From the NCBI RefSeq assembly GCF_003334815.1, contig NZ_QOWO01000004.1: 64,000 bases of DNA; one strand, 5' to 3'. Source of the stretch: Escherichia coli. Lineage in GTDB: Bacteria; Pseudomonadota; Gammaproteobacteria; Enterobacterales; Enterobacteriaceae. The notes under the pieces are model-generated. The model was given only the letters and a program-made list of their open reading frames with translations, was not told the DNA's origin and searched no databases. How positions within the stretch are numbered: position 1 is the stretch's first letter; each line of letters opens with the position of its first letter. Both the position numbers and the translations under genes were made by a program. Shown piece by piece: positions 48,719-48,753 of the stretch.

Positions 48719-48753
48719 TACTGGGGGGTAGTATCAGGTACTGGGGGGGAGTA
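48719..48753. promoter_or_regulatory. Pair of RcnR operator sites (TACT-G6-N-AGTA type)
   Basis: TACTGGGGGGTAGTA (48719-48733) and TACTGGGGGGGAGTA (48739-48753) between divergent rcnR and rcnA. Confidence 0.7.

Follow-up and report, generated by a model that had tools for sequence, protein, structure and literature searches.

A tandem RcnR operator with conserved 7-nt inner spacing and recurrent one-base G-tract variants between rcnR and rcnA of Escherichia coli

RESULTS

Genes and operator sites at the rcnR-rcnA locus

We analyzed the region between the divergent genes rcnR and rcnA in a 64-kb stretch of Escherichia coli DNA (here called the window). The repressor gene rcnR was identified with an NCBIfam equivalog (NF011613, 197 bits versus a cutoff of 138) and from the RefSeq annotation of identical loci, and the transporter gene rcnA was identified with NCBIfam NF007454 (557 bits) and from the RefSeq annotation of relatives. 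The open reading frame at 49834 to 50172 had no NCBIfam match; it was assigned to rcnB (yohN) from the equivalent 339-bp coding sequence, which is annotated as rcnB in all fetched relatives. Cotranscription joins rcnB to rcnA. The features are, in order along the window:

48398 to 48670, minus strand: rcnR, Ni(II)/Co(II)-responsive repressor, 90 amino acids
48701 to 48709, minus strand: TGCTATGAT, predicted from conservation as the extended -10 element for rcnR, with the -10 itself at 48706 to 48701; read in the direction of rcnR, it follows site 1 at a distance of 9 nt
48719 to 48733: RcnR operator site 1, rcnR-proximal, TACT-G6-T-AGTA, type 1 of the CsoR/RcnR family, from an exact motif match, K-12 identity, and publications
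48734 to 48738: intersite spacer TCAGG, 5 bp
48739 to 48753: RcnR operator site 2, rcnA-proximal, TACT-G7-AGTA, with the more variable G-run (48743 to 48749)
48752 to 48757, plus strand: TAGAAT, predicted from conservation as the -10 element for rcnA and overlapping site 2 at its right arm
48791 to 49615, plus strand: rcnA, Ni/Co efflux transporter and repressed target, 274 amino acids
49834 to 50172, plus strand: rcnB, accessory periplasmic subunit

The flanks of the operator region held further features. An ordinary thiamine pyrophosphate (TPP) riboswitch (RF00059, 71 bits; 48210 to 48306, minus strand) lies upstream of thiM (47387 to 48175) and adjoins the 3' end of rcnR. Strains differ in the annotated length of rcnA, with the frame kept (810 bp in E. 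coli WW2, 822 bp in another E. coli locus, and 825 bp in the window), and we suspect that these differences map to the His-rich loop HHHHDHEDHHDHGHHHHHEHGE. Just past the rcnB stop codon, a run of A's at about positions 50171 to 50177 is A7 or A8 (A8 in APEC O2-211, SA186, and UPEC 26-1); this polymorphism tracks haplotype clusters, unlike the G-tract variants described below, which recur on unrelated haplotypes.

The initial annotation had described two near-identical G-tract sites, 5 bp apart, between rcnR and rcnA, and its sequences and coordinates proved exact. Site 1 reads TACTGGGGGGTAGTA (TACT-GGGGGG-T-AGTA), site 2 reads TACTGGGGGGGAGTA (TACT-GGGGGGG-AGTA), and the TCAGG between them places the two sites 20 bp apart, center to center. 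A search of the window for TACTGGGGGGNAGTA returned two exact matches and none further at up to 2 mismatches, with 0.16 expected; sites 1 and 2 were likewise the only matches to TACT-N7-AGTA. The motif search thus found no additional RcnR-type site in the 64-kb window at up to 2 mismatches. A G-quadruplex or similar structure was considered for the operator and dismissed, as the G-runs number only two.

Two TACT-G6-N-AGTA RcnR sites in K-12 were defined by Iwig & Chivers 2009, as cited in three later reports (PMC3902906, PMC7055735, PMC7105576); their statements on RcnR sites and binding are credited there to that work (JMB 393:514) and to Blaha et al. 2011 (Biochimie 93:434). According to these reports, the tandem type 1 sites take one RcnR tetramer each, RcnR contacts the minor groove at the TACT and AGTA arms, and the A-like shape of the unbroken G-tract is read indirectly. 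The same reports cite Iwig & Chivers 2009 for binding by apo-RcnR and for its release by Ni(II) or Co(II). PMC3902906 gives the type 1 operators of the CsoR/RcnR family a tract of 3 to 8 bases and a repeat spacing of 6 to 9 bp; within this range, the rcnR-rcnA operator has TACT/AGTA arms, exactly 7 nt between them, and two sites phased at 20 bp, with one tetramer per site. Type 2 CsoR operators (e.g., that of Streptomyces lividans CsoR) are described in the same report as G-tract pseudopalindromes that likewise rely on readout of an A-like shape and on a GTA dyad anchor, but they differ from the RcnR sites in having two short G/C tracts 2 to 4 bases apart, about 11 bp between repeats, and two tetramers per site (PMC3902906).

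The intergenic stretch of the window was identical to that of K-12 MG1655 (NC_000913.3) at 140 of 140 bases, so that the whole region, with its two TACT-G6-N-AGTA type 1 sites, matches the K-12 operator base for base and shows no difference from it. The intergenic region was also found in 5,362 of 5,426 complete E. coli genomes. What we found agrees with a type 1 RcnR operator on each count: the motif, its tandem copies between divergent rcnR and rcnA, identity to K-12, and conservation beside rcnR orthologues. The element is almost certainly the canonical tandem RcnR operator, common to the divergent rcnR and rcnA(B) promoters, and the assignment of both sites to the TACT-G6-N-AGTA type in the initial annotation is upheld by the published motif, its two copies, and the identity to K-12. 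Since the RcnR sites of K-12 are published, this identity means that the operator is already known; judged by its sequence, it is an ordinary pair and the same element as in K-12, another E. coli strain.

Spacing and conservation across species

Next, we looked into the spacing of the two sites. The initial annotation held that the difference between G6 and G7 changes the spacing by one base, and this is not the case: the inner length from TACT to AGTA is 7 nt in both sites, made up of G6 plus T in site 1 and of G7 in site 2. The two sites therefore differ by a T/G substitution at the N position, with spacing unchanged.

We examined the upstream regions of rcnR loci from 80 species, and the operator was present in 79 of them. 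About 70 species shared the T/G difference, the 7-nt inner spacing, the 5-bp gap, and the 20-bp phasing, across the Enterobacterales (Escherichia to Morganella) and in a Vibrio europaeus locus. In site 2, the inner sequence was G7 in 73 of 78 informative species, the others having AG6 (two species, 7 nt kept), G8 (two), or G6 (one). Site 1 was G6T in 59 of 69 species; eight more kept 7 nt by substitution, one had G5T, and one had G7T. In 68 of 69 species the two sites stood 5 bp apart, with drift in the sequence of the bases between them. Overall, the 7-nt inner length was retained in about 94% of species, with G-to-A, G-to-T, and G-to-C substitutions that preserve 7 nt, and this pattern points to the canonical 7-nt spacing as what selection would be maintaining. 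The T/G difference at the N position, being conserved across genera, may reflect overlapping promoter constraints.

Some lineages depart from the pair. Morganella, Edwardsiella anguillarum, Erwinia psidii, and one Enterobacter locus had site 2 alone. In the Kosakonia/Phytobacter group (nine loci), a third, imperfect site (AACT-G7-AGTT) begins some 21 bp ahead of site 1, toward rcnR, so that three G-tract sites stand in phase.

Predicted promoters of rcnR and rcnA

Our literature search for rcnA and rcnR transcription start data returned nothing useful, and the promoters were predicted from conservation. A TAnnnT hexamer begins at the TA of the site 2 AGTA arm in nearly all of about 78 informative species, as TAGAAT in 48, TAGATT in 11, TATACT in 5, TACAAT in 4, and other hexamers in the rest. 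On the other side, TGnTAnnnT (in the rcnR sense) was found in 64 of 79 species, 48 of which had it at a constant distance of 9 nt from site 1, and it stands 30 to 35 nt before the rcnR ATG. From these patterns we infer that positions 48752 to 48757 form the -10 element of rcnA and that TGCTATGAT forms the extended -10 element of rcnR.

Two other sets of candidates were tried. The sigma-70 scan candidates for the rcnR and rcnA promoters were weak and nonconserved and were not adopted. A -10 element of rcnR at the hexamer overlapping the left arm of site 1 (reverse complement TAGATT) was rejected because its last T is not conserved. The predicted promoters match poorly at -35, which agrees with the report of a weak native rcnA promoter in PMC7105576.

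G-tract length variation in E. coli genomes

We searched 5,426 complete E. coli genomes for tract lengths with queries of 92 to 94 nt, for which a single difference drops a match below the 99% identity band. The alleles and their counts were as follows, with percentages referring to the common flanking haplotype:

Canonical (site 1 G6T, site 2 G7): 3,738 exact matches
Site 2 G8: 93 exact matches, 2.3%
Site 2 G6: 106 exact matches, 2.7%
Site 1 G7T: 26 exact matches, 0.65%
Site 1 G5T: about 15 full-length matches (24 in band), 0.4%

The strain comparison that the initial annotation had proposed thus shows that tract lengths differ: given the G6 and G8 variants, they are not identical in all strains. 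Even so, about 95% of E. coli genomes had the canonical 7-nt spacing. Variants were about five-fold more frequent at site 2 than at site 1 (odds ratio, 5; P value = 9 × 10−27), the runs being of different lengths (7 versus 6 bases).

We then compared the haplotypes of 11 variant loci with 2.5-kb flanks. Among these loci, G8 occurred on at least four distinct 5-kb haplotypes, which were 37 to 120 single nucleotide polymorphisms (SNPs) apart, and G6 occurred on at least five. Both alleles were also found inside one haplotype cluster, which indicates that the length change is recurrent. Some alleles were shared between strains. O121 RM8352 (USA) and O121:H19 16-9255 (Canada) had identical flanks and were both G8; O111:H- 11128 and O111 RM9322, from different sources, had identical flanks and were both G6. 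Because these alleles are shared on identical flanks by strains of different source, some of the variants must be real and inherited.

As a control, we used the C6 tract in yehA, which is coding, lies 2 kb away, and is the only other comparable run nearby. Variant rates were calculated on same-haplotype denominators, with 761 genomes carrying the window's yehA flanking haplotype. On this haplotype, 761 genomes had C6, 2 had C7, and 3 had C5, so that one-base variants amount to about 0.3 to 0.4%. Site 1 did not differ from this tract in variability (odds ratio, 1.6; P value = 0.42), and site 2 was eight-fold more variable, again with runs of different lengths (7 versus 6 bases). An excess of variation at site 1, obtained with an all-genome denominator, vanished on same-haplotype denominators and was dropped. 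Because the site 2 run is one base longer, its excess could come from the usual dependence of slippage on run length, from assembly error, or from both. The statement of the initial annotation that the G runs are slippage-prone is partly supported by the one-base variants in strains and plasmids, which occur at a rate that run length by itself could account for.

In the window itself, yehA (fimbrial-like adhesin, minus strand) is split by a +1 frameshift into overlapping open reading frames at 50254 to 50928 and 50891 to 51289, with a C7 run at 50912 to 50918. All 11 relatives examined had C6 and an intact gene of 1,035 bp, and the exact C7 version was found in two complete genomes only, B-2207 and 52F4. 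Either the window carries a lineage-specific pseudogene of yehA, or its assembly is in error at this run.

Plasmid operators and structural variants

An rcnR-rcnA pair with the tandem operator was also found on IncHI2-type plasmids (n = 411), whose rcnR shows 92% amino acid identity. The plasmid operator reads TACT-G6-T-AGTA, TATTT, and TACT-G7-AGTA, followed by GAAT; in the IncHI2A plasmid p48880_mcr, it lies at 1416 to 1450 of the fetched locus. Over 95 nt, 393 of the 411 plasmids were identical and 18 differed, the commonest variant being site 2 G6, in 11 plasmids (2.7%). The IncHI2-type plasmids that carry rcnR-rcnA are conjugative, and they correspond to the mcr-9 context described in papers.

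Single chromosomal genomes showed larger changes. E. coli WW2 has a 23-bp tandem duplication (GGGGGGGAGTAGAATCAGGTACT; about 472 to 517 of the fetched locus), seen in this one genome, which creates a third TACT-G7-AGTA 8 bp past site 2. In E. coli ETEC4085, an IS5-family transposase element begins directly past TAATACTAAGAA (from 513 of the fetched locus), some 8 bp ahead of the expected rcnA ATG, and parts rcnA from the operator and promoter. In BE2-5, site 2 is G8 and rcnA has a 22-bp deletion between GGCGTT direct repeats, which frameshifts the pump; PE15 is also G8 at site 2, with an rcnA that its annotation gives as frameshifted and 803 bp long, as in BE2-5.

DISCUSSION

Published work and the arrangement of sites and predicted promoters suggest how the operator would work. 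According to the former, one apo-RcnR tetramer occupies each TACT-G6-N-AGTA site, contacting the arms and reading the A-like shape of the G-tract, and the binding of Ni(II) or Co(II) frees RcnR and so derepresses both the efflux pump and rcnR itself. We know of no structure of DNA-bound RcnR. On the comparative data, site 2 would lie over the spacer and the -10 element (TAGAAT) of the rcnA promoter, and site 1 would lie over the -35 region of both the rcnA promoter and the extended -10 rcnR promoter. With both promoters covered in this way, bound RcnR would block RNA polymerase at each of them, which fits repression of both genes by a shared operator. One-base variants of the G-runs, mainly that of site 2, arise recurrently in strains and plasmids, as expected of a 7-base homopolymer.

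How much of this length variation is real bears on any reading of it. Long-read-only assemblies are prone to homopolymer miscalls, and most of the variants might be errors of this kind, with the real tract essentially invariant; we consider this possible, if rather unlikely. Many of the variants, those of APEC O2-211, PCN061, SA186, and DTU-1 among them, are singletons spread across unrelated strains, several of the plasmid variants were taken from records outside RefSeq, and the coding yehA C6 tract has one-base variants as well, at its rate of about 0.3 to 0.4% of genomes. However, the G6 allele is shared on identical flanks by O111 RM9322 and by O111:H- 11128, which we take to be a Sanger-sequenced genome, the G8 allele is shared in the same manner by the O121 strains from the USA and Canada, and gains and losses are nearly equal (93 versus 106), unlike a one-sided deletion bias. 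The shared alleles and this balance exclude artifact as the total explanation and leave room for it as a partial one.

A second reading takes the site 2 G-run as a contingency tract, similar to those of phase variation, in which slippage among G6, G7, and G8 would alter the spacing of the half-sites and of the rcnA promoter and would heritably retune basal Ni/Co efflux. Promoter-spacer homopolymer tracts give phase-variable expression in Neisseria, Haemophilus, and Bordetella. The site 2 run resembles them in being a G-run that, by our promoter prediction, would lie between promoter elements, within the rcnA spacer, and in differing by one base among isolates. Its alleles are found in 93 (G8) and 106 (G6) complete E. 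coli genomes at about five-fold the level of site 1, on haplotypes (at least four for G8 and at least five for G6) that make them recurrent; the O121 and O111 pairs each share their allele together with the 5-kb flank, and among the 18 variant IncHI2 plasmids, 11 are G6. Nevertheless, the run differs from the tracts of those genera in being shorter (7 bases), in having a canonical length conserved across genera, and in being primarily a protein recognition element. Classic phase-variable G/C tracts are longer than the 6 to 7 bases seen here, site 1 varies no more than the coding yehA C6 tract, and the five-fold excess of site 2 is obtainable from one extra base in the run. In a phase-variable tract no single length would be fixed over evolution, whereas about 95% of E. 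coli genomes and about 94% of species have retained the 7-nt spacing, a pattern of purifying selection and not of a maintained switch. Among the matches listed in our literature search, no paper linked rcnA to homopolymer tracts or phase variation. We therefore regard a contingency tract as improbable.

That the two motifs are a functionless chance repeat, as the shortness of the motif might allow, can be dismissed almost entirely, given two exact matches where 0.16 were expected at up to 2 mismatches, identity to the experimentally characterized K-12 operator, and a position and phase conserved upstream of rcnR in about 70 other species, which show that this is not a chance motif.

Because the spacing is strongly conserved, the run is short, and the variants are as frequent as the run length predicts, the sequence comparisons favor a balance of mutation and selection, acting on a short homopolymer that would be needed by the repressor, over a contingency switch. 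Half-sites set one base closer together or farther apart would plausibly bind RcnR less well. A bolder proposal, which we hold to be a long shot, makes the site 2 G-run a hot spot of mutation: its one-base alleles would reduce the binding of RcnR, change the spacer of the rcnA promoter, or do both, and in some lineages and plasmids they would heritably shift the set point of Ni/Co efflux, occasionally to adaptive effect.

The rcnR-rcnA operator is textbook metal homeostasis. Two points are worth keeping: the corrected spacing, which is 7 nt in both sites, and the recurrence of one-base alleles of site 2 in E. coli lineages and in mcr-9-type IncHI2 plasmids. These length alleles are natural spacing mutants, and they could offer a cheap test of how strictly RcnR measures the distance from TACT to AGTA. 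If the hot-spot proposal were true, the alleles concerned would include G6, common to both O111 strains compared and carried by about 2.7% of IncHI2 plasmids, as well as G8, common to both O121 strains compared.
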